Counted from the stretch's first letter, positions 22,730-36,013 are shown. The stretch: DNA of 54,505 nt from Actinomycetota bacterium (GCA_051744245.1 JBNJCV010000003.1:1-54505); one strand, 5' to 3'. Program-made: numbers and translations. Notes: generated by a model not told the origin, from the sequence alone.

Positions 22730-22804
<75 letters not shown>

Positions 22805-22844
22805 GCAACTTTAGGCTTCTAGACTCTTCCTAAAAAATACAGTT

Positions 22845-23258
22845 TTAGAGGTTATTATTAATTTCTTCTTTTAATTTATTAAATGTTACTAATATTTTTT
22901 CAATTAGGGATTCGATTTTGGAGGGATGTAAGTCTAAAGCATAAGCATGAGTGAAGAAATGACGGAAACCAAGATATTCTTTAAGTTCATCTGCTAGGGT
23001 ATCCGAAATTATGTTTTTATTTCTTGCCTTATTTAATAATTCCTGATGCCAAGAATCACCTGTTGGCATCTCAAATGATTTTAATTGAAATACCTGTTTA
23101 AGTATATTTTCCACTCCATTATAAAAATTATGAATCAGTGCTGAAAGACCAGCAAGTTCTAATTGTGATAATTGGGAAACAGGCTTGTTGGGTAGAAGAG
23201 AAAGAGTTTTTTCTATAGCTTCGTATTCAGCTTCAATGCGATATTTATATTTAGCCAT
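22845..23258 (-). CDS. HEPN RNase toxin (HepT/DUF86-like)
   Basis: FRHFFTHAY fits R-X4-H-X-Y; overlaps the upstream MNT gene. Confidence 0.85.
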   Translation of the reverse strand: MAKYKYRIEAEYEAIEKTLSLLPNKPVSQLSQLELAGLSALIHNFYNGVENILKQVFQLKSFEMPTGDSWHQELLNKARNKNIISDTLADELKEYLGFRHFFTHAYALDLHPSKIESLIEKILVTFNKLKEEINNNL

Positions 23259-23520
23259 AGAGTAATTTTCCCTCTTCTTTTACTAAATTAATAAACTTGG
23301 AAGATCCGTCTAGGTCAATAATATCGATTGGTTTTGAAATTTTAAGTAACAAGTCACCATAAAATTTAAAAAAATCTTTAGGGAAAAGGCCTTCTACCCC
23401 AATATCAATATCATTACTTGCTCTTTTTTGATCCAAGCTAGATCCAAAAAGTAATACACGTTTTACTTTATATTTCTTTGATGTCTCTTGAATTATGCTT
23501 ATATCCTTTTCTGTAATCAT
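23251..23520 (-). CDS. minimal nucleotidyltransferase antitoxin (MntA-like)
   Basis: LFGS...NDIDI motif; likely start ATG 23520, 7 nt after an extended -10 TGGTATAAT. Confidence 0.85.
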   Translation of the reverse strand: MITEKDISIIQETSKKYKVKRVLLFGSSLDQKRASNDIDIGVEGLFPKDFFKFYGDLLLKISKPIDIIDLDGSSKFINLVKEEGKLLYG

Positions 23521-23687
23521 GCTAATATTATACCATATTTTTTTTATCCTTTTGGCCTTGATAAATTTTCTATCAAATATTGAGTTTAACATTCCAAAAT
23601 TTAAGAATAGTTCATTATGGAAAAAGAAAGTTGGTTTTAATTGTTTCCGATCTATTTATTATATTTACATATTCATTAAAATAAAAA

Positions 23688-23716
23688 GTTCGAAATATGT
23701 CCACTAAAGGGAGCCA
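23688..23716 (+). repeat. cassette-boundary site 1 (tRNA-Asn 3'-end derived)
   Basis: GTTCGAAAT-ATGTCCACTAA-AGGGAGCCA. Confidence 0.85.
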
Positions 23717-23727
23717 AAATACCAAGT

Positions 23728-24912
23728 TTATTCAATAGAACTTAAATAGTTGCGTAAATCGAAGATATTTTTTATTTCAACTTTTTTCTTACATTTTATG
23801 CTTTTAAAAACTTTCTTCTGTTTACCATACATTTCAGAATTATATTTGACCTCTATAAGGGTATGGTCAGAAGTAAGAAAATCGATCTCAAACCCTTCTT
23901 TATAAATGTAACAGGGAGTAAGACTTTTAATTTTCATATATACATAATTTTCAAATATACTTCCGATATCTCTGAATCCCGTAAAAAGGGTTTTAATACC
24001 GAGATCTGCAGCGTAAACCTTTTTTGGAGATAATATTTTTTCATTTGTCTTGCTACACCTTGAAACAGGATATATTAAATAAGATTGATAAAACATATTA
24101 AAATACCTTCTTACCGAATCAGGGGTTATTCCAAGGATTTTGGAGATTTTATTAAGGCTGGCCTGTTTTCCAGCTCTTTCCATAAGGAGGAGAAAGAAAT
24201 CCTTCAATACAGAAATATTTTTAACATTATAGTAAACTGCTATATCCTTGTTTATGATATCGTCTACCAATTCTTTAAGATATTCAATGTTTTTATGTAT
24301 TACATACTCCGGTATTCCTCCTGTTTTCATATAGTCTTCAAAATATTCAGGAATAAGACTCGAATCTGCTTTCGGGATCTTGATATTTTTAAAACCGAGA
24401 TATTCGTTAAAATCCAGCGGTAATAATTCAATTAAAGAATACCTTCCGGTTAAATATGTTTTTCCGTTACGGAGCACTGAAGCACTCGACGAACTTGCAA
24501 AGATTTTTACATTTCCGGAATCATATAGATTCTTAAGCTGTATCTCGTAGTCTTTTTTGTAAGTTATCTCATCAAGAAAAATAAAAATTTTTTCAGAGAA
24601 AGGTATCCTGTGAATCCTTCTGTATTCATCGATTATCCCAACTATGCTTTTTTTGGATAAAAGGTAATCATCAAGACTTATATAAAATATTTTATTTTGA
24701 TTAATACCCCTGTCTTCTAATAATCTTTTTATTAATAACTTAAAAACTGTAGTTTTACCAACACGTCTCAACCCGGTTAGAATTATTATATCCCTTGAAT
24801 TAAGCTTATTTAGAATAAGGTCAACGACGTTTCTCTCATATATCCCCTGTAACTTATAATCCGTTTCCCACCATGGGTTATACCTATATAACAGTTCGCT
24901 AATATTTTGCAT
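23728..24912 (-). CDS. AAA_14/DUF4143-type ATP-binding protein
   Basis: NPWW start, GLRRVGKT Walker A, FLDEI Walker B, KVYAADLG, FENYV, EIDF..IEVK. Confidence 0.85.
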   Translation of the reverse strand: MQNISELLYRYNPWWETDYKLQGIYERNVVDLILNKLNSRDIIILTGLRRVGKTTVFKLLIKRLLEDRGINQNKIFYISLDDYLLSKKSIVGIIDEYRRIHRIPFSEKIFIFLDEITYKKDYEIQLKNLYDSGNVKIFASSSSASVLRNGKTYLTGRYSLIELLPLDFNEYLGFKNIKIPKADSSLIPEYFEDYMKTGGIPEYVIHKNIEYLKELVDDIINKDIAVYYNVKNISVLKDFFLLLMERAGKQASLNKISKILGITPDSVRRYFNMFYQSYLIYPVSRCSKTNEKILSPKKVYAADLGIKTLFTGFRDIGSIFENYVYMKIKSLTPCYIYKEGFEIDFLTSDHTLIEVKYNSEMYGKQKKVFKSIKCKKKVEIKNIFDLRNYLSSIE

Positions 24913-25056
24913 TTTAGAACCACCTTTTTAAATGTTTGTCGTATTATACGATTATATCGTATAAAATGTCAAATATTCATATGATGGAAACATATAATAT
25001 AAATTAATCAGAAATAGAAAAGTTATCTTATTTCCAGGGTAATAACAGGCTCAATG

Positions 25057-25093
25057 TTGTTATCAATACCGTCCAGCCCGGGGAGCCAGCAAC
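25057..25093 (+). repeat. cassette-boundary site 2 (variant left half)
   Basis: CGGGGAGCCAGCAAC at 25079-25093 is identical to 22795-22809; the preceding GTCCA is in register with site 1. Confidence 0.85.
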
Positions 25094-25185
25094 CCCTCCC
25101 GCTCCCAAAGCTGGCATAATCCTATACCAAACTTCTACTAATTTTCTATTGACCAGTAGTATATTTAAGGTATAATAATTATACC

Positions 25186-25446
25186 ATGCAATTTGAATTT
25201 GATAAAAAGAAAAGCAACATTAATAAAAGGAAACATGGTATTGATTTTTATGAGGCTCAAAAATTATGGGATGATGTAAATTACATTGAGATTCCAGCTA
25301 AGAATATTGATGAAACAAGATTTATTATAATTGGTAAAATTCTAGGAAAATATTGGTCAGGAATAATTACCTATAGAAGTAAAAAAATAAGAATTATTTC
25401 TGTTCGGAGATCTAGGAAGAAGGAGGTTGAATTATATGAAAGCTAG
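25186..25446 (+). CDS. BrnT-family toxin
   Basis: FEFD..K...N..KHGIDF and RIISVRR; TTGACC-N16-TATAAT just upstream. Confidence 0.9.
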   Translation: MQFEFDKKKSNINKRKHGIDFYEAQKLWDDVNYIEIPAKNIDETRFIIIGKILGKYWSGIITYRSKKIRIISVRRSRKKEVELYES

Positions 25447-25666
25447 TGAATTAGATAAAAAATTTGATGAAAATAAAGAAGATATTACAAAATATCTTGA
25501 TATAGCAAAAGCAAAAAGACCAAAGCAAGAACAAAAAAGAGTGAATGTTGATTTTCCTCTATGGATGGTAAATTTATTAGATAAAGAAGCTAAAAGACTG
25601 GGGGTACCAAGACAATCTATTATTAAAGTTTGGGTAGCAGAAAGACTTGAAAGACAAACTCAGTAA
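25436..25666 (+). CDS. BrnA/CopG (RHH) antitoxin
   Basis: KRVNVDFP.WM...LD.EA.RLGV.RQSIIKVW; overlaps the toxin gene. Confidence 0.88.
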   Translation: MKASELDKKFDENKEDITKYLDIAKAKRPKQEQKRVNVDFPLWMVNLLDKEAKRLGVPRQSIIKVWVAERLERQTQ

Positions 25667-25691
25667 AAAATTAAGTAAATTTGTTTTTAAT

Positions 25692-25736
25692 TGCAGATAA
25701 TATCTTTAATAATTTGGTTTGAACATTGTCTACTAG
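25692..25736 (+). repeat. degenerate boundary site (left flank and spacer only)
   Basis: TGCAGATAATATCTTTAATAATTTGGTTTGAACA aligns with 33260-33292; spacer TTGTCTACTAG resembles ATGTCCACTAA; right box absent. Confidence 0.6.
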
Positions 25737-25752
25737 TCCTTAAAGGAATTAT

Positions 25753-26895
25753 TCAAAAAATACTTGTTGCACTTTTCATATTTTCAATTACTTTAACATC
25801 AAAAGGGCATTTTTCTTCGCAATTACCACAAGCAATACACTCAGATGCTTTGTGTAAACAAGCCTCGTACCGGTCCAGTATTTGCCCAGGAATATTTCTT
25901 TTATTTATCAACGCTATATCAAGTAATTTTGTTATGGCAGCAATATCTATATTTGAAGGGCAAGGCAGGCAATGATTACAGTATACACATTTTCCATCGA
26001 GAGTGCCTTTAAAGCTTTCCGTAGCTTTACTATAATCTAGCTGTTCATCAGTTAGATTAATGTAATTTGCAGCTTCAATAACTTCACTGCGGGAACTACA
26101 TCCAATTAATGCGCTTACAACAGCTGGGCGTGTCAAGGCATAGTGGATGCATTGTCCGACGGTTAATGGGACATTAAAAGGTGAAAAATCTGGGATTAAA
26201 AGCTTTCCCGCCCCGAGAGTTTTCATAGTATTGATTGTTATACCTTTGCTTTCGCAAAGCTTGTAAAGATTGATACGTTTGGGGTCAATGTTTTTAAATT
26301 GTTCTCTTCTAAGTTTTTTAAACAGGATTGATTGAATATAAACATCCTCTGGCAGCATGTCAAAAGCAATATTAGTGCTAAACATTAGCAACTCTATTGT
26401 TCCAGTTTCTACTATCCTTGTAGCCATTTCTGGGTTGTGAGAGCTTGCTCCTATTGCACGAATTTTACCATCCTGTTTTAATTTTTGAACATATGATATA
26501 TATTCTGTGTCGAAAACACCCCTATAATCTTCCTCAGTATCAATAAAAAACATCATGCCCAAGTCAATATATTCTGTTTTAAAACTTCTAAGAAGATTTT
26601 CAAAATATCTTTTACAGATTTCTACATTACGTGTCCTATCATATTGTTCATGGATATCAACTGATCCGATATGCCCCTGAATTAATATTTTATCGCGGTT
26701 ACCTTTTAGAGCTTTTGATATATTATCTCTTACAGGTGTGCCAGGTATAAAGACATCAAAGATATTAATATCACACTAAAGGGCACCCTGGACTACTTCT
26801 TCACATGTCTTATATGGTTTATTGTCCAGATACTCTGTGCCAAGCCCAATAATACTTGCTGACATCCCAGTCTTTCCAATATCTTTGTATATCAA
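25753..26895 (-). pseudogene. aldo/keto reductase with C-terminal 4Fe-4S domain, disrupted
   Basis: TTG start 26895 with RBS (MIYKDIGKTGMSASIIGLG); in-frame TAG at 26776-26778, then a frameshift near 26750; C-terminal CVYCNHCLPCP and CIACGNCEEKCP. Confidence 0.8.
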
Positions 26896-27313
26896 AAACC
26901 CTCCTTTTAGCCAGAGAATATAATTTTGAGTTTAATTATTCATAACTTTTTCCTGATATTTAGTCCAGTTTTTAATTTAGGATCTAGGTCATTTATAAGC
27001 TAATGTCAAACACACTGGCTATTACCTGCTGAAATATTGTTATAAAATGGCTTTCAAATTATTGTTGCTAGAGATTTTTCTTATTGCTTTCAAAATATTT
27101 GCTGTTGAATTTATTCGCTTTCTGGTCTGAAATCCAGTAATTGATATTATTAATTCCCTTAAATTATTACGATTATATATTCTAATATAAATATCTTATC
27201 TGGTCTATAGCAATTAAAATAAAAAGATAATAAATTTGGTTTATAGTATAAAAATATCTCCATTTGAATTAATAATCCTGTTTCGAACCTTGTAGAATAT
27301 GACCAGCGAAAAA

Positions 27314-28495
27314 TTAGAGTTTTAATTTTCCCCTGCTTTTAAATATAAAAACCAGTGCCCCGGTAATAGCAACAGCAGAAGCAAGGATTATTCCATAGCT
27401 GTAAGTGCTGGAAATATCAAAGAGAAGCCCTCCTATTATGGGAGATATTACCCCGGATACCCCGTATGACAGGTGTATTGATGGATAGATATTTTCAAGG
27501 TTATGGATTCCATGAATATTTGAAATCTCGGCAGCAAATAGCACAAAATTAGCCCCAAAACCCATTCCTATAAAAAAAGATATTAGCATAAAGGAAAAAC
27601 CATTATTGGCTGGTATTAATAAAAGCAGGATTGATATTGAGAGGAATATAAGGGCAGCAATGATTGATTTTTTGCTGCCTATAAGGTCAGTAATCTTGCC
27701 CCATATAATCCTCCCCAGGGAATTTCCAACTGCAAACAGGCTAATGGCCATGGTAGAGAAAAAATTACTAAAGCCATATGACAGCCCTATTGGTTTAAGG
27801 TTTCCAATTATCAGTACGCCGGCAAAGGTCCCAGAAAACATTAAATATAACAATAGCCATAGATTTTTATTTTTTGTAATATCTTTTATGCTTAATATGT
27901 TGTGGTCCTCAATTTGATTGCTATTCTGGTTGGGATTTGTTACAAGGAACGCAGACAGCAATATTATTGCACCATAACTGATGGATATAATTTTGAAAAT
28001 ATCCAGGACAGGCAGGTTTCTTTTAAGCAGAAATTCGACCATCTGCGATAGAAGTATGGCGCCGCCCCCGAAACCAGCAACAGAAATTCCGGTAATTAAA
28101 CCTTTATGGCCAGGAAACCATTTTATGGGGGTAGCCAGCGCGCTTGCATAGCCAAAGCCAATCCCGGCTCCGGCAATAAGCCCCATCCCTAAAACCAGGA
28201 ATACTAAATTTCCATTGGAAAATGCAGATATTAAGTATCCACAACTGAAAAGGGCAGCGCTTATTATGGTGCTGGTGCGCGGGCCTATTCTTTTTAGCAA
28301 CCTGCCGGCAACTACCAGTGATATGGCAAATGAAGGTATAGTAAGTCCGAATATCAACTGGGTCTGTGCTGTTGTAAATCCACACTCAGCCCTAAGAGGG
28401 GGAACGTATATGCTAAATCCATACATACCGCCAAGGCAAACCATGGTAAGGATAGAGCCTAAAAGCACAAAATATTTTTTCAGTTTGGTAAACAT
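27314..28495 (-). CDS. MFS transporter (OFA/OxlT-like)
   Basis: About 12 TM segments; KWFP..KGL.TG...AGFGGG and GRIIWG.ITD.IG. Confidence 0.88.
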   Translation of the reverse strand: MFTKLKKYFVLLGSILTMVCLGGMYGFSIYVPPLRAECGFTTAQTQLIFGLTIPSFAISLVVAGRLLKRIGPRTSTIISAALFSCGYLISAFSNGNLVFLVLGMGLIAGAGIGFGYASALATPIKWFPGHKGLITGISVAGFGGGAILLSQMVEFLLKRNLPVLDIFKIISISYGAIILLSAFLVTNPNQNSNQIEDHNILSIKDITKNKNLWLLLYLMFSGTFAGVLIIGNLKPIGLSYGFSNFFSTMAISLFAVGNSLGRIIWGKITDLIGSKKSIIAALIFLSISILLLLIPANNGFSFMLISFFIGMGFGANFVLFAAEISNIHGIHNLENIYPSIHLSYGVSGVISPIIGGLLFDISSTYSYGIILASAVAITGALVFIFKSRGKLKL

Positions 28496-28610
28496 CTATG
28501 CCTAAAATTTAATATTGGGACAAATTATTAAAGTATTCTAAAGCCACTTTTAATTTTGTCAATAATTTTTGGTATTATTGTTATTTAAATTTTAAATTAC
28601 AGTCTGAATA

Positions 28611-28638
28611 GGTTCTTTTTTAAAAATAGTGTTGATTT
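28611..28638 (+). repeat. AT-rich repeat, also at 33943-33969
   Basis: GGTTCTTTTT(T)AAAAATA(G/T)TGTTGATTT. Confidence 0.6.
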
Positions 28639-28753
28639 ATTATCTTTTTTTCCAAACATATCTCAAAAAACATAATAATTGATACCTATTTAAACCAAAT
28701 TGCTTGAATTCGCTTTATGTCAACAAAGATGACGCTTTTTTTAATTAAATAAT

Positions 28754-29070
28754 TTAGTACTTATTATCTTCCCTATTAAGCACAACTTCCTCAGGAGCGC
28801 CCCAGCAAATAGTATCCCTTGATCCCCAGTGCTCGGGATTTTCACGTTTTGCCCTTTGCATGACTTTGTTTCTGTTTTTAAAGATGTCTGCTGCGCTGCC
28901 GTCTCGCATCTGCTCCGGGGTGATGTATCCTATTGATGAATGAAGATGTTCTGTGTTATACCAGTTTACAAAATCTGCCATCCATCCTCTTGCATGTTCA
29001 ATATCTTTAAATCTTATCGGATATCCGCTGCTGTATTTAAGTGTTTTAAAAAATGACTCAATATATGGGC
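28754..29070 (-). mobile_element. IS3-family transposase C-terminal remnant
   Basis: PYIESFFKTLKY..FVNWYNTEHLHSSIGYITP integrase-core tail; N-terminus missing. Confidence 0.8.
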
Positions 29071-29077
29071 ATTCTTT

Positions 29078-29598
29078 TCTTAAAAAAAAGAATGAAATAC
29101 TTCCTGGGTAAGCCAAAGGTGACCTATAAATATAAATACGAAGAAAAGATAGCTGGATTCAAACCTTTTCAATGGAGGCAGCTTGCTTCCCATATACCAG
29201 GTAAGGGCAAGCAGGCTGTCTGTTACTGCCGGTATTATAATAACGTTAAGAGAGGCAGACTGAAAAAAAGAAGAATGTGGCCAGAATATCATATTATAGA
29301 AGATGATTCTCCCGGAGGTCTAAATAAGTTCTGGGCTTATACAGAAGATGTATAAAGTGGGTCTGCTTACCTTCCCAAAGTACGGGGGAGAGATGAGGAT
29401 TATTGCTTTTATTTTAAGATTATAAGGTTGTAAAAAAGATTCTTGATTATTTGGGTATAGATGAATTTGAGAAAAAGAGGTATTCCACATACTTTCTGAT
29501 CAGTATTTGAGACCAGTGGCCATTTTTATCTCCAATAATGATAAATATGCCGACTTTTGGGGATTATAGGTCGGGGATCCAAAAGCAAATTCTTATAA
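29078..29598 (+). mobile_element. IS91-like (Y2 rolling-circle) transposase remnant with putative terminus
   Basis: LASHIP.KG.Q.V.Y..YY.N..RG, then in another frame QKMYKV.LL.FPKYGGEMRIIAFI (cf. EVDPL.CP.CGG.MRII.FI); ends in AAGCAAATTCTTATA. Confidence 0.7.
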
Positions 29599-29619
29599 AT
29601 TATAAATTAAGCACTCGAG

Positions 29620-29897
29620 CTCCGTGAGGCAAGAAGGCTGCTGGACAGACTCGAAATACATTATGCCCCAAAGCATGGCAGCTGGTTAAATATCGCAGAG
29701 AATGAACTAAAAATTCTAAATGGTCAGTAGCTAAACCGCAGAATCCCCTATTAGGAAATGTTAATTGAAGAGGCAGCAGTCTGGCAGGACAAGCATAATT
29801 ATGATAAAGCTAAGGTTACCTGGCAGTTTACAGCAAAGTGTGCCAGGATAAAACTAAAGAGGTCTTATCCTATATTATTATCTTGACATACTGCTAG
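29620..29897 (+). mobile_element. IS630-family transposase C-terminal remnant
   Basis: HYAPKHGSWLNIAENEL..LNGQ*LNRRIP and WQFT...RIKLKR-YP with stops and frameshifts. Confidence 0.8.
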
Positions 29898-29911
29898 TTT
29901 GAAGAGTCTGC

Positions 29912-30121
29912 TTAAATTTTAAGCGCTTCTCCTATTTGCTCATAGGATATATCAGGCAGGTGAGCGGTTGTTTTTGCATGTTCTATTGTTATACTGACAA
30001 GGTTGCCTTTTTCATCAATATCTATATATATATTTTCTGAAATTTCTCGGGTTTCCTTTATCACATTTTCCGAAAATTCTAATAAAGCGGTGTCAGTATC
30101 ATTGAAATATTTTATTTTCAT
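29912..30121 (-). CDS. DUF2283-family protein (putative antitoxin)
   Basis: MKIKY..DTD....F....IYID.D.KG.LVSITIEHA; AAGGAGG RBS. Confidence 0.8.
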   Translation of the reverse strand: MKIKYFNDTDTALLEFSENVIKETREISENIYIDIDEKGNLVSITIEHAKTTAHLPDISYEQIGEALKI

Positions 30122-30125
30122 ATTC

Positions 30126-30362
30126 TTATTCCTCCTTGAAATTTCTATCAAAGAAAGCATTATGGACTGTTTCTCCATCTTTAAGCATTATGACTCTTAA
30201 ATACTTTCCTTCACTTTTGATTTTTGACCATTTTCTTATTCTTCCATCTGACTGTATTTCAGTTTTAACTGGATCGTTGATGGTATCTTTTATCCAAGTA
30301 TCTTTTACTTTCGACCTATCTGGTCTTTTCTTCATATAATGAAAATAATTTGTAAATTTCAT
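30126..30362 (-). CDS. DUF4258-like / RelE-fold putative toxin
   Basis: Q.DGRIR.W..I...GKYLRV..L.DGETVHNAFFDR; paired with DUF2283. Confidence 0.7.
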   Translation of the reverse strand: MKFTNYFHYMKKRPDRSKVKDTWIKDTINDPVKTEIQSDGRIRKWSKIKSEGKYLRVIMLKDGETVHNAFFDRNFKEE

Positions 30363-30649
30363 TTTAATAATTCTGAAATCTTAAAAACTTCTTTTTTGTC
30401 AACAAATCTGTCATTAATGTACTTATGTAGTATGCTTGATATCAATGTCTGGTAAGGGATACCCTCAATATTAGCAATAGATTTCAATTGCTCGAGATCA
30501 TTGTTATTGAGCCTTAGAGTCACAACTCTTTTCTTTGAGCTTTTTTCTAAAACTGCCTCGATATTTTTCTTCTTCTCCTTAGAAACTTTTTTATATCCGG
30601 CTGCTTCCTTCTCAATAATCTTTTCATCTTTATCTAATTTATATTTCAT
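30359..30649 (-). CDS. CopG/BrnA-like RHH antitoxin
   Basis: VTLRL...DL..LK..A..EGIPYQTLISSILHKY. Confidence 0.8.
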   Translation of the reverse strand: MKYKLDKDEKIIEKEAAGYKKVSKEKKKNIEAVLEKSSKKRVVTLRLNNNDLEQLKSIANIEGIPYQTLISSILHKYINDRFVDKKEVFKISELLK

Positions 30650-30912
30650 TTTAATTTCTCCTTATATATCTTATGAAAATTCCTACTGGGAAATACTGTT
30701 TTTATTACAATGTTGTTGTCACTATCAATAACAAAAGGTACGACATGTATATAATTTCTATATACAAGAATGAAAATTTGCTGCCCAACTCTTTTTGGAT
30801 GTTCTAATATATCTAAATATTTTTTATTAATAATAATATCTACGATGTCTTCAATCTCAATATTACGTTCATATCTTAACTTTATAGCCCTATGTCTATC
30901 ATAGATTATCAT
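30646..30912 (-). CDS. BrnT-like toxin
   Basis: ER.I..EDI, HP.R..Q.IF, Y..VVPFV, KT.FPSR; TTGACA-N16-TATAAT 6 nt before ATG. Confidence 0.75.
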   Translation of the reverse strand: MIIYDRHRAIKLRYERNIEIEDIVDIIINKKYLDILEHPKRVGQQIFILVYRNYIHVVPFVIDSDNNIVIKTVFPSRNFHKIYKEKLK

Positions 30913-31098
30913 AAAATAATTATATAGAATAAATTTATAATGTCAATACATTAAATTTATATTGTAAATTTTAATAAATAGGGTCTATAATCTTAAATAC
31001 AAAGTTTATAAAATAAAGCTCTTGACTATAAGAATATAAAAATTGTTTTAATTCTATCTAATTTATTTTCTAAATTATTGGTTTCATTAAAATAAAAA

Positions 31099-31127
31099 GC
31101 TCGAAATATGTCCACTAAGGGGAGCCA
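31099..31127 (+). repeat. cassette-boundary site 3
   Basis: GCTCGAAAT-ATGTCCACTAA-GGGGAGCCA; 31083-31127 matches 23672-23716 at 43/45. Confidence 0.88.
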
Positions 31128-31177
31128 TCAATCCTAAATATACGTGCCTGCGGAACATGTTGAAAATCTTCTTAAAT

Positions 31178-31216
31178 GTTCATAAAATGTGAACTAATAG
31201 TTTATAAATCATGAAC
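31178..31216 (+). promoter_or_regulatory. tandem palindromic operators upstream of the HTH-MNT gene
   Basis: GTTCAT-N5-GTGAAC and GTTTAT-N5-ATGAAC, 22 bp apart. Confidence 0.55.
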
Positions 31217-31240
31217 GTTGCTTAATAAGGACTAAAATAA

Positions 31241-31774
31241 ATGCATAAAATATTTTCAACTCCTGAAAGATTAAAAATTATAAAATATGTAATCTTCAAA
31301 GAAGGCCCATTAAGCGTAAACGCTGTAGCAGATGATCTAAACTTAAGCAAAGGGTTAGTTTCTAAATACTTAGAATTGTTGTTACAGGAGAAAATTACTA
31401 GTAGGTCAAAGGGAAAATACTTAATTACTGATTCTGCTATTACTAAAGCTATTAAGATTTTTTTAAACATTTCAGAAATAGAGGTAGAACTTTTTAAAAA
31501 ATTTAAATTTGTAAAATCGGTTGGTCTTTATGGAAGTTGTGCAAAAGGTGAGAACACGGAAAATTCAGATATAGATATATGGTTGTTGGTAGATGATGTT
31601 GAAGACGGGAAAGTTGCTTCGCTAAGTTCAGCAATAAGCAAAAAAATAAAAAATGCACAATCGATATTTTTAACAGAAAAGAAACTTGAAAAAATAAAAA
31701 AAGATGATGAACTTTTTTACCATTCATTATCCTTTGGTTCAATAATTATTTATGGAGTAAAAGATGCCATTTGA
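31241..31774 (+). CDS. HTH-nucleotidyltransferase antitoxin
   Basis: N-terminal winged HTH (LSKGLVSKYL) plus LYGSCAKGENTENSDIDI. Confidence 0.85.
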   Translation: MHKIFSTPERLKIIKYVIFKEGPLSVNAVADDLNLSKGLVSKYLELLLQEKITSRSKGKYLITDSAITKAIKIFLNISEIEVELFKKFKFVKSVGLYGSCAKGENTENSDIDIWLLVDDVEDGKVASLSSAISKKIKNAQSIFLTEKKLEKIKKDDELFYHSLSFGSIIIYGVKDAI

Positions 31775-32205
31775 TTACCGCGACTGTATAAAAGCAAGCC
31801 TTCTTCGCAAGATTCCACCCTCTAGAGATAAAGCTTTTCAATCGGTAAAAAAAGCTAAAGTTTGGCTAATAGAATCGAAAAAGTCTTTGGAAGGTGATGC
31901 AACAAGTTCTTCAATAATAGCATCTTATATGTGTATGTTTCATGCTGCTAGATCAATTCTCTTTTTTGACGATTACAGGGAAAAGAGTCATGCATGTATT
32001 GCAAGATATTTGGAAGAAAAATATGTAAAAACCAATATATTGGATAAAAAGTGTTGAGCTGCTTGACCATAGCAGAGAAACAAGACACAATGACCAATAT
32101 AATCTTAGTTTCTTTTCAACAGAAGATGATGCTAAAAATGCTTTAGAATCTGCAGAATCGTTTTTTAATGAAATGGAGAGTTTACTTAAGAAAATATCCA
32201 AATAG
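31764..32205 (+). pseudogene. HEPN-domain protein, frameshifted
   Basis: Y..MFHAAR..L and KSH.C; after ~32052 another frame continues VELLDHSRETRHNDQY..KISK* to 32205. Confidence 0.78.
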
Positions 32206-32261
32206 CTAAATTAGTTGCTAGTTATAGTATGTTTTATTTTTTGTAGGTTTTTTAAAAAGTA

Positions 32262-32295
32262 GTTCGAAATATCAAAGATTAGGGGAGCCAGCAAC
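32262..32295 (+). repeat. cassette-boundary site 4
   Basis: GTTCGAAAT-ATCAAAGATTA-GGGGAGCCA-GCAAC. Confidence 0.88.
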
Positions 32296-32456
32296 CTAAG
32301 GTTTCAGCTTTTGGCTCTTTACCGGCAACAGGGGCAGCCCGTACTCTAACAGCATAACGCTCTGACTCCTTAACCTGTAGTTTTCAAATATTTTAAGTAT
32401 TGATGTAATTCTTTTTCTGATAAACTACAATTGTAGTAAATCGTAATAACGAGGTA

Positions 32457-32936
32457 ATGTTGATAATTTTTGATTCTTCTACATTGTTTTTGTTAGCTAA
32501 GGTAGATATTCTACAATTAGTTTTAAAACAATATATTGGAGTTATACCAGAAATAGTAAAAAAAGAAGTTTTATTTAAAGAAACTATGGATGCCAGAATA
32601 ATTAAGCGGTTCATTAGTGAAGGGAAGATCAAATTAAATAAAAATCCAAACAAGAAAGTTATTGAAAAAGTTTGTAAAGATTTTCCTTTAGGTAAAGGTG
32701 AAGCGGCTGCATTAGTTTTAGCCAGAAAGAATAATTATATTTTTGCAACTGACGATGGATTAGCTATTAAAGTTTGTAAAATATTTAATATAAAATTTGT
32801 AACAGCTATTCATTTTTTAATTGGAGCGCACATTGATAAAAAGATTGCTTTAGCAAAACTTAATTTACTCCAAGAATTTGGACGTTATTCAATAGATATT
32901 ATTAAAGATGCTAAAAAACGTATAATTGGAGGGTAA
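32457..32936 (+). CDS. PIN-domain protein (DUF3368-like toxin)
   Basis: IIFDSS, V.KE, LGKGEAAAL.LA, ATDD; upstream palindrome ACTACAATTGTAGT at 32424-32437. Confidence 0.85.
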   Translation: MLIIFDSSTLFLLAKVDILQLVLKQYIGVIPEIVKKEVLFKETMDARIIKRFISEGKIKLNKNPNKKVIEKVCKDFPLGKGEAAALVLARKNNYIFATDDGLAIKVCKIFNIKFVTAIHFLIGAHIDKKIALAKLNLLQEFGRYSIDIIKDAKKRIIGG

Positions 32937-32942
32937 TTAAAA

Positions 32943-33230
32943 ATGAGTGTAATGAGTCTACGTTTAAATAGGGAAGAATTAAATAGAATATCTAAACTCT
33001 CAGAACAAAAAAAAGAAGCAAAGTCAGCAGTAGTTAGAGAATTATTAAGAGAAGGATGGATATTTTATTGGCTTAAGTTATATAGTGCGGGCAAAGTATC
33101 TATTGGGAAAATGGCTGAAGAACTTGACCTATCTATAAATGATGTTTTAGACTTACTTGCTGAATTTGGCATAAAATCATCAATTCATTATGATGACTAC
33201 TTAAAGGGATTTGAAAATTTAAAAAAGTAG
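32943..33230 (+). CDS. UPF0175-family antitoxin (RHH-HTH)
   Basis: KSAVVRELL and LY..GKVSIGKMAEEL.LS. Confidence 0.8.
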   Translation: MSVMSLRLNREELNRISKLSEQKKEAKSAVVRELLREGWIFYWLKLYSAGKVSIGKMAEELDLSINDVLDLLAEFGIKSSIHYDDYLKGFENLKK

Positions 33231-33283
33231 CTAAATTAATTAAAATTATTATATTTGAATGCAAATAATATTTTAATAATTTG

Positions 33284-33316
33284 GTTCGAAATTTCAATAC
33301 TTGGGGGAGCCAGCAA
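33284..33316 (+). repeat. cassette-boundary site 5
   Basis: GTTCGAAAT-TTCAATACTTG-GGGGAGCCA-GCAA. Confidence 0.88.
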
Positions 33317-33319
33317 ATT

Positions 33320-33592
33320 TTAATATACATCATCATGTTTTCCAATATCAATCGGAATTATCGTGTTTTCTTCAATAATGAAATCAATGCATATCCTATA
33401 TGAGATATTAATTGAAACTGAATATAAATCTGATAATTTACCTTTTAATTTATGCAAGCGAAGTGATGGGTGAAATACATTTATTTCGATTAACTTTAAA
33501 GTCTTTTCGTATTGAGAAATAATTTCAGGGTGATTTTTTAAAAACTTTTTGGCTCTCTTAATATATGTTTCAGTATATATTATTTTATTCAC
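33320..33592 (-). CDS. RelE/YafQ-family toxin
   Basis: HPSLRLHKLKG.L...YSVSI..SYRI and DIG.HD.VY. Confidence 0.88.
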   Translation of the reverse strand: MNKIIYTETYIKRAKKFLKNHPEIISQYEKTLKLIEINVFHPSLRLHKLKGKLSDLYSVSINISYRICIDFIIEENTIIPIDIGKHDDVY

Positions 33593-33842
33593 CGGTTATT
33601 CTTTTAATGTGTTCTTCAACAGATTCTTCAATAAATTTGCCATTTTTCATATCTCTTCTTGACTCGATAAGGGCAATTTCAAGCTCGCACTCTCTCAAAC
33701 TATTATATGCTGCAATAGGCAAAACGACATATTCATTCTTTCCTCTTACAGTAATAATAACTTCATTGTCGCTTGAGGTCGCATCTTTTAATGCGGAAGC
33801 CCCTTTTTGTTTTAATTCGCTTGCTGTTAATATTTTTACCAT
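33585..33842 (-). CDS. Phd/YefM-family antitoxin
   Basis: TASELK and VIITVRGK..YVV; overlaps the toxin gene. Confidence 0.85.
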   Translation of the reverse strand: MVKILTASELKQKGASALKDATSSDNEVIITVRGKNEYVVLPIAAYNSLRECELEIALIESRRDMKNGKFIEESVEEHIKRITGE

Positions 33843-33854
33843 AATAACACTCCT

Positions 33855-33895
33855 TTTAGTACTTTAAATAGTACTAAATAATATACTTTTGTCAA
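33855..33895 (-). promoter_or_regulatory. promoter with overlapping palindromic operator of the phd-relE pair
   Basis: TTGACA-N16-TACTAT; perfect inverted repeat TTTAGTACT-N6-AGTACTAAA at 33855-33878. Confidence 0.7.
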
Positions 33896-34255
33896 TTACT
33901 ACATAAAATTTATTTTGAACTTTAATAATTCACTAAAAAATTGGTTCTTTTTAAAAATATTGTTGATTTTTTATTTAGAATTTATTGGCCTAATTCTGAG
34001 CTTTATCCTCTTTTTTTAACAAGATCTGTATCCTATTTCTAATAAATAATTCAAATAATCGCTTAAAATGCATTAAAACCATCTTCAGATGGTTGAAACA
34101 GTTTCTCTCGCTTCGAAATATATCATATCTTTTAAACTTATCTTTATATACCAACATTATTCTTAAAAAGAGCCAATAATTTTTCTATTTATTTTTTCCT
34201 GTTTAAACTGCACTTTTCCGCTCATTATAATTTTTAAGTAGAAGGAACGAACATT

Positions 34256-36013
34256 ATGAAGGTATCTGGCGCAGAAATAATAGTTAAAATGTTAGAGGCA
34301 AATGATGCAAGTTATATTTTCGGTGTACCTGGTGGGCATTTACTAAAATTTTATGATGCTGTTTACAATAGTAAAAAACTAACACCAATTTTAACTAAGC
34401 ATGAGAGCGGCGCTGCTTTCATAGCAGCAGGTTTTTCTGAAGTTAGTAATGAGATAGGTGTTTGTACCGGTACCGTAGGTCCAGGAGCCACTAATCTTAT
34501 TACTGGCATAGCTTCAGCTTATATGGATTCGATACCAATTTTTGTTCTTACCGCACAAGTTGGAACTAGCACAGTGGGCAAGGGAGGATTACAAGAAGCT
34601 ACAGGAGTTGGTCGAACAATTGACCATGTAGAATTATTTGACGGTATAACGAAATATTCTAATCGGGCATTAAATGTTAATAAATTACCTGAAAGTTTTA
34701 GAAATTTAATAAGGCTTGCCTTAAATGGGAGGCAAGGGCCAGTACACTTAGATGTAATGGCTGATATTTTAGCCTCTTATACAGAAGTTGATAACAAAAT
34801 TTTAAATGAAAAAATAGAAAAACTATCTATTTCTGCAATTCAGAAGGATATAGATAGGGCTTCTAAATTAGTATTTTTTTCTAAAAATCCTGCAATTCTT
34901 GCTGGAGCTGGGGCCCGTGCTGCTAGTAAAGAAATCCTTAAACTTGTTGAAAATTATAATATACCATTGGCTACTACTATAAGAGGAAAGGGAATAATAC
35001 CTGAAAATCATGAATTTTATCTTGGTTGTTTGGGTCTATATGGAATAAATATAGCAAATAAATATCTTAGGTCGGGTATTGATGTACTTATTGGAATTGG
35101 TACTAGTTTCAGTGAATTTACTACTCATGCATGGGATAAAAGGTTTCAACCTTCTGATGCGCTAATCCAAATAGATATTGATGGATGGGAAATTAGCAAA
35201 AATTATGCTACAGAGATAGGTATAAAAGGAGATTCAGATATAGTTCTTTAACAATTATTAACTGCAATGGAGAGACAAGATAAATCCAAAAAATTTATAG
35301 ATTCTAGCAAGATAACCAAAATGAAGAGAGAAAGAGAATACTTTTCTGACCCAAAAATGGAAGATGATAGCATTCCTTTGAAACCACAACGTTTCATGAA
35401 ATTATTGCGGGATTCATTACCAGAAGAAACTATTATTTTTGGAGATATCGGCAATACTTTAACTTGGCTTGAAAGTTATTTCCAATCGCTTAAACCTAAT
35501 TCTTTTTTTATTTGCTCTAGCTTAGCATCTATGGGTTATGGGGTTTCAGCATCGATTGGAGGCCAAATAGCGGCAGGCAACCGTCCTGTAGTTTGTGTTT
35601 GCGGAGATGGTGATTTTCAAATGCAAGGTATGGAAGTTGTTACAGCGGTTAATTATAATATCCCTGTAACTTGGTTTATTTTAAATAATCAATCTTTAGG
35701 TATGATGGTCGACTTACAGAAAATAATTTATGGAGGAAGAAAAATATCTAGTGAATTTGTGAACCCTGATTTTGTTAAACTTGCAGAATCTATGGGAGCA
35801 GTCGGATTAAGGATTACTAAACCAAAAGAGATAGAATCAGTAGTACAAAAAGCTATTAGCAATAAAAAACCAACTGTAGTTGATGTACAAATTGACCCAG
35901 ATGAAGCCCCACCATTTGATGCTAGGGCAGAAGCAATTACTAAAGCCCAGGGATCGTCAGCTCCTTTATTAAAAAAATTGAAAATGGTTCCTAAATTTTT
36001 AAAAAGGACTTAA
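34256..36013 (+). pseudogene. TPP-dependent acetolactate synthase-like enzyme split by one in-frame TAA
   Basis: FGVPGG, HE..A.F.A, GPGATN and GDG.F.M..NN; both ORFs share a frame, with TAA at 35249-35251. Confidence 0.8.

Follow-up and report, generated by a model that had tools for sequence, protein, structure and literature searches.

In staphylococci, SCCmec and the pseudo-SCC elements, which lack ccr, are serine-recombinase elements stacked at the 3' end of a conserved gene. SCCmec encodes a recombinase pair, CcrA/B, and targets a protein gene; the recombinase-less pseudo-SCC units are bounded by the same integration-site repeats as SCCmec. These staphylococcal elements are mentioned in the relevant passages of a study of Dehalococcoides ssrA islands (McMurdie et al. 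2011, PMC3146451), and tRNA-anchored islands, the tycheposons, have been described in Prochlorococcus (bioRxiv 10.1101/2020.12.28.424599). According to the sections of PMC3783163 that deal with attachment sites, large serine recombinases (LSRs) recombine only attP with attB; these two sites have an outer box of 7-8 bp in common, which in attP is 5 bp more distant from the crossover (Rutherford et al. 2013). In integrons, attC sites are conserved in structure and poor in sequence; the corresponding sections of the same survey report no complete integron in any Actinobacteria genome surveyed (PMC4889954).

Here, we analysed a stretch of 54,505 nucleotides from an Actinomycetota bacterium (GCA_051744245.1, JBNJCV010000003.1:1-54505; hereafter, the window), in which a tRNA-Asn gene is followed by small cassettes bounded by four repeats. 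Judging from sequence comparisons, these repeats probably correspond (probability of roughly 0.85) to the P half of the attP site of a large serine integrase, and the 3' end of the tRNA to the B half of attB. The link between the site and an LSR rests on homologous sites elsewhere, not on the window.

Boundary sites and cassettes in the window

The tRNA-Asn(GTT) gene was located at 22730..22804 on the + strand (ARAGORN; Rfam tRNA, 74 bits). Its 3' end, GGTTCGAATCCTACTCGGGGAGCCA, provides the proposed host-side (B) half of attB, that is, the last 25 nt of the gene (22780-22804, + strand). Downstream of it, the pattern GYTCGAAAT-N11-RGGGAGCCA had four exact matches in the window, all on the + strand (starts 23688, 31099, 32262 and 33284), and none in 100 dinucleotide-preserving shuffles. 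In the whole 1.77-Mb genome, these four were also the only matches to TCGAAAT-N{5,20}-GGGAGCCA. The preliminary description had listed four copies with an 11-nt spacer, and its spacers proved exact. It had also claimed that the repeat is 5 bp longer than the corresponding stretch of the tRNA and cannot form the T-stem, which the distances confirm: the segment that opens with the G of GTTCGAA and closes with the last A measures 24 nt in the tRNA versus 29 nt in the repeats, which have no partner for a T-stem. Measured from GGTTCGAA, the sites extend over 30 nt up to their final A, versus 25 nt in tRNA-Asn and tRNA-Gln, the only two of the 36 tRNAs of this genome to end in AGCCA. The sites are not contiguously identical to the 3' part of the tRNA; they match it in two separate boxes and have 5 nt more.

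Cassette 1 (22805..23649, - strand) contains a HepT-like toxin (22845-23258) and an MNT-type nucleotidyltransferase (23251-23592; Pfam PF20797, 5e-23, and PF18765, 5e-8). In a close relative of the same genus, about 93% identical to our genome, this cassette is preceded by an R3-like site and not by a tRNA. Site R1 (23650..23716, + strand; nhmmer 1.9e-8), of the R1 subtype, has its core at 23687-23716 and ATGTCCACTAA as its middle. It is followed by cassette 2 (23728..24912, - strand), encoding an AAA_14/DUF4143 ATPase (Pfam PF13173, 5e-29; PF13635, 3e-15), and by Rx (25075..25093, + strand), whose sequence, CCCGGGGAGCCAGCAAC, is a partial tRNA-Asn-like 3' end, with a fifth, partial copy of the right box and without the left box. 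The composite stretch at 25094..31061 comprises, according to Pfam, BrnT/BrnA (25186-25666), a truncated aldo-keto-reductase/4Fe-4S gene, an MFS transporter (27314-28495), an IS (rve) fragment (28754-29116), a DUF2283 pair, and a CopG-type antitoxin pair (29912-30912). This stretch is absent from the close relative between its R1/R2-type site and the tRNA.

Site R2 (31062..31127, + strand; pattern match and nhmmer), also of the R1 subtype and with its core at 31098-31127, precedes a cassette (31128..32224, + strand) of MNT (31241-31774) and HEPN (31764-32057) genes, as assigned by Pfam, which is 92.7% identical over its full length, from CCA to CCA, to a cassette of the close relative. Site R3 (32225..32290, + strand; pattern match, nhmmer 1e-12) is followed by a cassette (32291..33246, + strand) that begins with a conserved, GC-richer piece of ~110 nt common to two other loci, and contains a 159-aa ORF without a Pfam family match (32457-32936) and a UPF0175-like antitoxin (32943-33230). 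Site R4 (33247..33312, + strand; pattern match, nhmmer 2.2e-13), of the main subtype, precedes a cassette (33313..33948, - strand) with a RelE/YafQ-like toxin (33320-33592) and a Phd antitoxin (33585-33842), both assigned by Pfam. The terminal site of this last cassette, which is complete in the close relative, stops after GGTTC (33914-33948), and its remainder is replaced by a MITE-like insertion of ~235 bp with terminal inverted repeats (33944..34178).

Conservation of the sites in related genomes

We searched 80 genomes of the same family, labelled Candidatus Humimicrobiaceae by record titles, with the spacer left free between 8 and 16 nt and the reversed pattern as a control, and obtained 208 matches versus 1 for the control. 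Overall, the site family was present in 54 of the 80 genomes. Among the 150 matches listed, our own reading gave a length of 29 nt for 137, 28 nt for 5 and 30 nt for 8; among 167 distinct sites collected with a profile, a sample gathered partly with a fixed-length pattern, the corresponding numbers were 161, 4 and 2. The complete site is ~67 nt long, with a conserved AT-rich arm of ~37 nt preceding the core, and the boxes of the core are better drawn as 13 + 7 + 10 nt: GGTTCGAAATTTC, a variable heptamer (N7), and GGGG[C/G]AGCCA. Across 210 sites, information content was 1.4-2.6 bits per position in both boxes, with a variable heptamer between them, and dropped from 1-2 bits to about 0.1 bit right after the final A of the CCA end. 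The variable middle reported earlier was thus recovered, but it is 7 nt long and not 11. Collecting homologous sites from relatives and computing their information content and spacer lengths, as had been proposed in the preliminary description, showed a near-invariant spacing and a conserved left box.

These data bear on whether the repeats might be decayed copies of tRNA 3' ends, left by classical tRNA-targeting integrases, in which spacing and boxes have no function. Some heptamer variants (CTACTCGGGG) resemble the tRNA-Asn stretch, and true 25-nt partial tRNA-Gln ends, which form a separate class, do occur in or beside arrays (n = 9 in the DNA searched). However, if the repeats had decayed at random, their lengths should scatter and the left box should not stand out in its conservation, and the larger set showed neither: the same +5 architecture recurs in >200 copies, one length accounts for 161 of the 167 sites, and both boxes hold their 1.4-2.6 bits while the heptamer varies. 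Moreover, the architecture is kept in a GC-rich family whose tRNA has a different T loop, and decay is highly improbable as an explanation.

This GC-rich family emerged from a sample of the phylum, in which 18 of the 20 genomes of the present family had a match; the only family-like matches among the other 280 genomes were three, in this one further Actinomycetota family. Its tRNA-Asn has GGTTCGAGTCC, whereas its sites keep GTTCGAAAT in the same architecture. The left box is common to the T loop, as in the earlier idea that the element end mimics the T-loop box, but need not copy the local T loop.

A structured RNA or tRNA-like element was also considered and rejected, since the sites had no Rfam match at E <= 1 and their orientation was independent of that of the genes.

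Organization and turnover of the arrays

The sites bound one- or two-gene cassettes, assembled in arrays of one orientation behind tRNA-Asn or tRNA-Gln. All 12 long regions examined contained 4-9 sites in a single orientation, 0.1-6 kb apart, and most units were 0.5-4 kb long, with one or two genes and without a recombinase. Arrays on the tRNA-Asn side carried GAGCCA sites (the window and four other loci) and those on the tRNA-Gln side CAGCCA sites (seven loci), with the exception of one tRNA-Asn locus followed by a CAGCCA site. Some arrays adjoined other tRNAs; at three such loci, a partial tRNA-Gln end lay between that tRNA and the array.

The close relative carries the same cassettes as our genome in another order, with a junction at GGGGAGCCA. 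Whole cassettes also recur in other genera beside different neighbours, such as the RelE/Phd cassette, which is 95% identical from CCA to CCA in the close relative and in a genome of another genus, and an MFS cassette occurred in two forms, one having a CAGCCA site and the other a GAGCCA site. Homology breakpoints were observed on both sides of the 7-nt middle: between two loci (L075 and L092), the heptamer differs with an unchanged left arm, and at the upstream junction of the RelE/Phd cassette the whole site differs with an unchanged right box.

With their single orientation, very diverse cargo, and single-gene and toxin-antitoxin cassettes, the arrays are integron-like, and their sites might be attC or other folded tyrosine-recombinase sites in CALIN-like arrays without an integrase. 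However, eight sites (seven distinct sequences) folded as DNA gave z-scores of -1.75 to +0.57, which amounts to no fold, and the small palindrome of one subtype is broken in others without compensation. Sequence is conserved here and structure is not, the opposite of attC as characterized in the relevant sections of PMC4889954. This genome has no IntI; its two full-length tyrosine recombinases match Xer models, as XerD and a Xer-like protein, and score 148 and 141 bits versus an integron-integrase cut-off of 265. At most two full-length PF00589 matches were present in 26 of the 54 site-bearing genomes (our own table count), as in site-free genomes. Finally, no tyrosine recombinase was found among the ORFs of at least 150 aa in 12 regions, and only one of 1946 site-flanking ORFs was tyrosine-recombinase-like; it belongs to a separate NikA-integrase module present in 8 of the 80 genomes. 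Sites of the attC type are thus hardly credible.

Xer-flanked modules of Acinetobacter plasmids provide a parallel for a dif-like target of the host XerC/XerD, the sole tyrosine recombinases in many of these genomes. Such a target would agree with the make-up of the site, whose 29-30 nt comprise dissimilar arms flanking the 7-nt middle, and with the presence of only the two Xer-type recombinases in about half of the site-bearing genomes. However, the site bears no likeness to the canonical-looking dif 28-mer of the genome (C12:33758; ACTTCCGATAATATATATTATGTAAACT), the same two recombinases occur in site-free genomes, and the LSR link presented below accounts for the site fully, which leaves a dif-like target extremely improbable.

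Overlap of the sites with a large serine recombinase gene

On the antisense strand, the site translates as W-L-P-x-V-x-K-F-R-T-N-F-stop. In the window, R1, R2 and R4 translate as WLPLVDIFRTFYFNE..., WLPLVDIFRAFYFNE... and WLPQVLKFRTKL..., respectively, and the frame of R3 is interrupted by a stop (WLP*). Among 257 distinct ORF pieces with WLPxVxKFRT, the stop was found 12 codons after the W in 186. Where more DNA survives, the antisense of the site is the 3' end of an LSR gene encoding ~500 aa. At one locus, a 132-aa ORF running through the site matched 32 proteins of 250-543 aa (41-80% identity), of which 29 had PF00239 and PF07508 and most also PF13408. The database copies of this LSR end in ...RSNWLGREDSN..., which is tRNA-Gln translated antisense. 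Moreover, an LSR gene or its 3' remnant lies antisense over tRNA-Gln or tRNA-Asn at four loci in relatives, and at another locus an LSR remnant lies directly beside a P site. The P' arms beside LSR remnants are alike (GTTTGAACGATTTTGGCAATT... at two loci), and an AATTTC-like stretch occurs near the mirror position of the P arm, too weak a resemblance to count as the imperfect dyad symmetry expected between the P and P' arms. AGCCA is common to the sites and both tRNAs, and conservation stops at its last base.

This LSR was matched in 28 of the 80 family genomes, for the most part by 3' remnants or by copies that internal stops interrupt; in none of these 80 representative genomes did a complete P site adjoin an LSR of this family that was clearly intact. 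The genome of the window has no PF00239 match and, by tblastn, no LSR remnant, and its array would therefore be a relic or be moved in trans. No excision joint at the sites was found in contigs of four public runs, in which rare forms cannot appear.

The overlap raises the question of whether the conservation is only protein-coding, the boxes then being conserved residues encoded by the 3'-terminal part of the recombinase gene and not DNA contacts. Indeed, the antisense frame is open in most copies, and the GC-rich family has an antisense tail of ~32 aa with conservative amino-acid changes and a common stop position. However, synonymous positions are equally fixed in the main subtype (CCC, TTT, CGA and the third bases of variable codons, 1.9-2.4 bits), conservation runs about 25 nt past the stop codon, both boxes are retained even where a stop interrupts the frame, as in R3, and the left box matches the tRNA T loop at the 5-bp offset expected of a DNA site. 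Coding as the sole cause is thus very unlikely; part of the conservation could still come from coding for the LSR tail and not from protein-DNA contacts. The selected protein-binding or recombination site that the preliminary description had placed at the element boundaries, with a box common to the T loop, is supported, and its enzyme class can now be named. It is a DNA site but not purely a DNA signal, as its antisense strand would also supply the final 12 codons of the recombinase gene when the element is excised.

Discussion

We propose that each repeat is the element-distal junction left by an LSR element targeting the 3' end of tRNA-Asn, and that sister elements use tRNA-Gln instead. As long as the element is free and circular, attP would lie inside the 3' end of the LSR gene, antisense to the tRNA; its P arm, formed by the ~37-nt AT-rich arm and the GGTTCGAAATTTC-N7-GGGG[C/G]AGCCA core, would hold the last 12 codons and the 3' flank, and its P' arm would be the body of the gene. 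The integration crossover, with its exact dinucleotide, would presumably fall within or next to the common AGCCA. After integration, the LSR body would abut the tRNA, with its reading frame running on into the tRNA antisense strand, and the P arm would come to form the opposite end of the element. Through successive integrations and the loss of LSR genes, small cargo cassettes would then accumulate as an array in one orientation, each terminated by a P arm.

The zinc-ribbon domain of the recombinase most likely binds the left box, GTTCGAAA. In the P arm, this box is displaced by 5 bp away from the proposed crossover relative to the matching T-loop box of the tRNA, an offset also known from other LSR attP/attB pairs, and these extra 5 bp appear to be the known difference between element and host sites of this enzyme class. 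Serial entry into an occupied tRNA and the shuffling of LSR-less cassettes are not accounted for by an enzyme that recombines only attP with attB, nor does a single 2-bp crossover at AGCCA predict breakpoints on both sides of the heptamer.

As attP would lie within the enzyme's own frame, the C-terminal tail would differ between the two states of the element: WLPRVAKFRTNF when free, and WLGREDSN..., read off the tRNA, when integrated. It is conceivable, though unlikely, that LSR-less cassettes are still captured, excised and reshuffled in trans by a visiting LSR, in which case the arrays would not be just graveyards. The tail difference could then serve as a built-in direction switch, and Candidatus Humimicrobiaceae, possibly with other Actinomycetota, would run a serine-recombinase counterpart of the integron on tRNA-Asn and tRNA-Gln.

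Among known systems, SCCmec and pseudo-SCC would resemble the arrays of the window in their stacking and in their recombinase-less bounded units, and differ from them by the CcrA/B pair and the protein-gene target, versus an LSR and a tRNA here. For the A118-type LI integrase of Listeria phage, the sections of PMC3783163 on attP and attB describe an outer 7-8-bp motif common to both sites and placed 5 bp (half a helical turn) further out in attP, with differing sequence between the boxes and short identity only around the crossover, as in our sites if AGCCA is the putative crossover region. Here, the comparison covers the P and B arms, and we infer the assignment of boxes to domains; the P' arm is located inside the recombinase gene, the B' arm (the downstream flank of the tRNA) is not conserved, and attP falls within the reading frame of the enzyme.

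The Dehalococcoides ssrA islands, as presented in the relevant passages of McMurdie et al. (2011, PMC3146451), are likewise tandem islands downstream of a small RNA gene, bounded by the 3' end of that gene or its repeat, with a serine recombinase of ~540 aa on the reverse strand adjoining attL; islands without an integration module are read there as cis-mobilizable elements. In contrast, their target is tmRNA, their repeat is a plain 20-bp end copy, and they are kilobases larger and keep a six-gene integration module, whereas the present units target tRNA-Asn or tRNA-Gln, are mostly 0.5-4 kb long with one or two genes and no recombinase, and have a distinct boundary repeat, an arm of 67 nt that exceeds the tRNA end by 5 bp.

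Integron arrays and CALIN share with our arrays, in the corresponding sections of Cury et al. (2016, PMC4889954), one orientation, small, promiscuous, toxin-antitoxin-rich cassettes and an order shuffled between close relatives. Our arrays, however, have sites with a conserved sequence and no fold, lack IntI, are anchored on a tRNA gene where integrons have attI, and would involve an enzyme of the serine and not the tyrosine class. Finally, the Prochlorococcus tycheposons, in the parts of bioRxiv 10.1101/2020.12.28.424599 that describe them, are similar in their tRNA-anchored successive integrations, leftover partial tRNAs and degenerate elements, and in the use of large serine recombinases by some. 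Their repeats are partial tRNAs, and besides integration and replication modules they can hold cargo of up to 10 kb, whereas the repeats described here are P arms with a non-tRNA middle and the units are mostly bare cargo.

Sites behind tRNA-Asn and their distribution

Behind dnaG- and rpoD-like genes, at 22730-22804, is a tRNA-Asn(GTT) gene, the 3' end of which reads GGTTCGAATCCTACTCGGGGAGCCA. A search for the pattern GYTCGAAAT-N11-RGGGAGCCA returned four matches behind it (R1 to R4, at 23688, 31099, 32262 and 33284, all on the + strand), compared with none in 100 shuffles. The four boundary copies with fixed boxes and 11-nt spacing claimed in the preliminary description are thus real, and the 5-nt difference from the tRNA that it had pointed out was also confirmed, as the T-loop box and the acceptor/CCA box are common to both, with 5 nt more between them in the repeats. 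No other copy of this exact form was present in the 1.77-Mb genome, one complete contig of which makes up the window. Moreover, an isolated right box without a left box (CCCGGGGAGCCAGCAAC) was observed at 25075-25093, in a locally GC-rich stretch; judging from its sequence, it looks like a piece of a foreign tRNA-Asn 3' end (to be compared with the tRNA-Asn of locus L099, which ends in CCCGGGGAGCCA).

The sites always point in the same direction as the tRNA, while the genes between them point both ways, which favours a site acting at the DNA level over a transcript signal. A structured RNA was rejected on the basis of Rfam, in which no family matched the sites, and a hairpin or attC-like site because folding was no better than in shuffles (z from -1.75 to +0.57).

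Further copies were detected in the same genome once the right box was relaxed: 12 profile matches were obtained at E <= 1e-4, two of them downstream of tRNA-Gln, with ends reading GGGGCAGCCA or GGGCCAGCCA. Within Candidatus Humimicrobiaceae (80 genomes), the site was present in 54 genomes, with 208 matches versus 1 for the reversed control when the spacer was left free. The consensus of 210 distinct sites, aligned on the left box, was ...TtAaTTCtTTtAAAAAtT GGTTCGAAATTTC gCaACtc GGGGCAGCCA. The boxes carried 1.4-2.6 bits per position, the 7-nt middle (heptamer) was variable, and information dropped to about 0.1 bit immediately past the final A. The heptamer did not prove to be hypervariable in three site pairs shared with G001, a genome of the same genus (10 differences in 90 nt versus about 7-8% in the flanks); in other site pairs it was replaced wholesale.

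When one genome from each of 185,579 species was scanned for the exact pattern, 90 stretches were obtained, almost all of them from metagenome-assembled genomes titled Actinomycetota, with one titled Candidatus Humimicrobiaceae and a few short contigs otherwise labelled. In a phylum sample of 301 genomes, matches were found in 18 of the 20 genomes of the family and as single matches in 11 of the other 280; three of these 11, all in one other family, were true relatives of the R1 subtype. In regions of a second, GC-rich Actinomycetota family (L319-L321), R1-type sites (GTTCGAAAT..GTCCA....GGGGAGCCA) lie behind tRNA-Asn, together with HicAB and Fic cassettes. The single match in the viral collection was an IMG/VR contig (L151), in which an R1-type pair brackets an MNT/HepT cassette beside a PrimPol-D5 primase-helicase and a MerR-type gene; no PF00589 match was found within this 7.4-kb fragment. 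These R1-type sites indicate that the element family extends past Candidatus Humimicrobiaceae.

Architecture of the site

On sequence grounds, we read the repeat as the P arm, or element-side half, of the attP site of a large serine recombinase (LSR), and the last 25 nt of the tRNA as the B arm, or host-side half, of attB. The preliminary description had proposed a selected protein-binding or recombination site, and this inference was right. Measured from GTTCGAAAT to CCA, 161 of the 167 sites span 29 nt. After integration, the far end of each element would be marked by a P arm, which would explain why conservation ends at CCA and why the following sequence differs in each copy. A 5-bp difference between attP and attB is given as a hallmark of large serine integrases in PMC3783163; given this offset, GTTCGAAA would be the putative motif shared by attP and attB, and the right box the inner region, with crossover probably within the common AGCCA. 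By analogy with the LI numbering, our guess for the central dinucleotide is the AG of [C/G]AGCCA. Among the 36 tRNAs of the genome, tRNA-Asn and tRNA-Gln alone have the AGCCA ending.

Two features of the arrays are left unexplained by this LSR reading, namely tandem accretion at an already occupied tRNA, LSRs being described in PMC3783163 as recombining attP with attB only, and the reshuffling of LSR-less cassettes between the window's own genome and G001. In addition, homology breakpoints fall on either side of the heptamer, which a single 2-bp crossover does not predict.

Arrays and cassette turnover

In 12 long regions of relatives, 4-9 sites were present per region, in a single orientation and spaced 0.1-6 kb apart. 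CAGCCA sites occurred in arrays by tRNA-Gln and GAGCCA sites in arrays by tRNA-Asn, L099 being the one exception. A 25-nt partial tRNA-Gln end starts the arrays beside tRNA-Cys and two of three beside tRNA-Leu; it was sought and not found in arrays beside tRNA-Arg, tRNA-Leu(caa) and one tRNA-Leu(taa) (L108). The cargo was highly varied, including toxin-antitoxin pairs, MFS and other transporters, methyltransferases, catalase, beta-lactamase-fold proteins, aldo-keto reductases and flavodoxins.

In the window, the stretch from tRNA-Asn to 33948 is a succession of small units: HepT/MNT; an AAA_14-DUF4143 ATPase; a stretch with BrnT/BrnA, a probably truncated aldo-keto reductase, an MFS transporter, remains of an IS and two small pairs of antitoxin type; MNT/HEPN; an ORF without assigned family with a UPF0175 protein; and RelE/Phd. 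The aldo-keto-reductase/4Fe-4S gene (25753-26562) encodes 269 aa, with the reductase domain matched only in part, and is probably truncated, the versions of this cassette in three other arrays (L159, L160 and L163) being 360-379 aa long.

A MITE-like element of about 235 bp with terminal inverted repeats (GGYTCTTTTT...ATTGTTG / CAACATTATT...AAAGAGCC) was observed at 33944-34178, where it takes the place of the array's last site from after GGTTC, at 28607-28710 as a shortened copy adjoining an rve fragment (28754-29116), and on another contig of the same genome (C36:15798-16026). Directly 3' of site R3, a GC-richer piece of about 110 nt (32291-32401) is 77-80% conserved in two other genera (L007 and L018). 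Its first 35 nt or so are similar to the downstream flank of tRNA-Asn, Rfam gave no match to it, and one contig of the public run X2 departs from the window exactly at 32401; the piece may be ancestral flank or a separate small element. Downstream of the array, an acetolactate-synthase-like TPP enzyme is encoded in two ORFs, 34256-35251 (N and M domains) and 35267-36013 (C domain), with 15 nt between them, which could reflect a frameshift, a stop or a genuine split.

G001, which is 92-94% identical to the window's genome, has AbiEii/AbiEi as its first cassette, and its HepT/MNT cassette lies behind an R3-like site and not behind the tRNA. At the position where the last site of the window is cut off, G001 has a complete site followed by more cassettes. 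In G052, a genome of a different genus, the RelE/Phd cassette recurs among other neighbours, with 95% identity over its length from CCA to CCA; one 607-nt cassette was present in four genomes, and one MFS cassette was seen in two arrays, paired with a CAGCCA site in the first and with a GAGCCA site in the second. In contigs of four public runs, no joint was listed at the sites, such contigs being uninformative on excision either way; the loose ends seen at sites there were traced to paralogous copies or to different strains.

Candidate recombinases

In the GC-rich Actinomycetota family, the strand opposite the R1-type sites was conserved in the manner of a protein-coding sequence. The antisense of the main site, TGG CTG CCC CGG GTT GCG AAA TTT CGA ACC AAT TTT TAA, reads W L P R V A K F R T N F stop. 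Among 257 distinct ORF pieces with this motif, the stop lay 12 codons past W in 186, and fewer than 20 codons preceded W in 215. When the 41-aa tail from the GC-rich family was used as query, its only match was itself. Where the frame extends further, as it does in a few copies, the part upstream corresponds to the C-terminal region of an LSR. A 132-aa ORF running through the site in L110 matched, at 41-80% identity, the ends of 29 proteins (about 490-540 aa), which carry PF00239 and PF07508, as well as PF13408 in most cases.

These proteins end in WLGREDSNL... and not in WLPRVAKFRTNF, and this tail is tRNA-Gln translated antisense. In five public LSR entries (P0003, P0005, P0013, P0024 and P0027), C-terminal tails of up to about 30 residues correspond to the antisense of a whole tRNA gene. 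Such tails are attributable to gene calling on integrated elements, in which the recombinase gene runs into the tRNA. An LSR gene or its 3' remnant was found antisense over tRNA-Gln or tRNA-Asn in four regions (L325, L326, L330 and L334), ending in a partial tRNA-Gln fragment in three (L327, L328 and L333), and directly behind a P site in one (L049). LSR matches were detected in 28 of the 80 family genomes, mostly as remnants or copies containing stops; the window's own genome gave none, either in the PF00239 search or in homology searches.

Other enzymes were considered and rejected. Searches for tyrosine recombinases (PF00589) in the window's own genome, in five genomes and in all 80 family genomes revealed no extra recombinase accompanying the sites. 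Besides XerD and a Xer-like protein, the own genome encodes one truncated copy and one fragment, and in a near-complete relative, which carries 18 strict sites, two tyrosine recombinases only were present. As counted from the table, at most two full-length PF00589 matches were present in 26 of the 54 site-bearing genomes, and likewise in genomes without sites. A tyrosine-recombinase-like ORF was found once among 1946 site-flanking ORFs: this 345-aa integrase, on metagenome contig L231 (4187-7998), lies with a NikA/MobC-type protein where a site breaks off past the heptamer. It forms part of an unrelated NikA-integrase module of 2 kb, which occurs in 8 of the 80 family genomes with no constant tie to the sites and is possibly a mobilizable element inserting into them. 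A Xer/dif reading was also discarded, the canonical-looking dif 28-mer of the same genome (ACTTCCGATAATATATATTATGTAAACT, C12:33758) being unrelated to the site. Reverse transcriptase (PF00078) and Y1 HUH transposase (PF01797), searched in five genomes, were inconsistently present, and the LSRs returned by the first PF00239 search, in G042 and G043 only, belong to other LSR families and are not joined to the sites.

Significance and comparison with known systems

Much of the family's flexible gene pool thus lies in tRNA-anchored arrays of tiny cassettes, which cross genera as whole units. The LSR attP/attB rule that would account for the odd-looking repeat is itself known, and here appears in another natural system, uncultured and with more than 200 site copies, in which the 5-bp offset is visible from sequence alone. 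Two defined attB sites (tRNA-Asn and tRNA-Gln) and a recombinase family of about 500 aa can be tied to the P-arm set, and matched sets of sites and enzymes are what those hunting for genome-engineering integrases gather. The weight of these observations could rise if recombinase-less cassettes still move, or if the tail swap that results from splitting the recombinase gene affects directionality. A literature search under the family name returned nothing on its mobile elements.

SCC elements are among the closest described systems. Integrons resemble these arrays in outward form only, and what tycheposons have in common with them is an island anchored on a tRNA. Also among the closest systems are the attP/attB architecture of LSRs, as outlined in PMC3783163, and the ssrA islands of Dehalococcoides, which PMC3146451 describes as tandem, with a reverse-strand 540-aa serine recombinase adjoining attL, and of which those lacking the module are interpreted there as cis-mobilizable.
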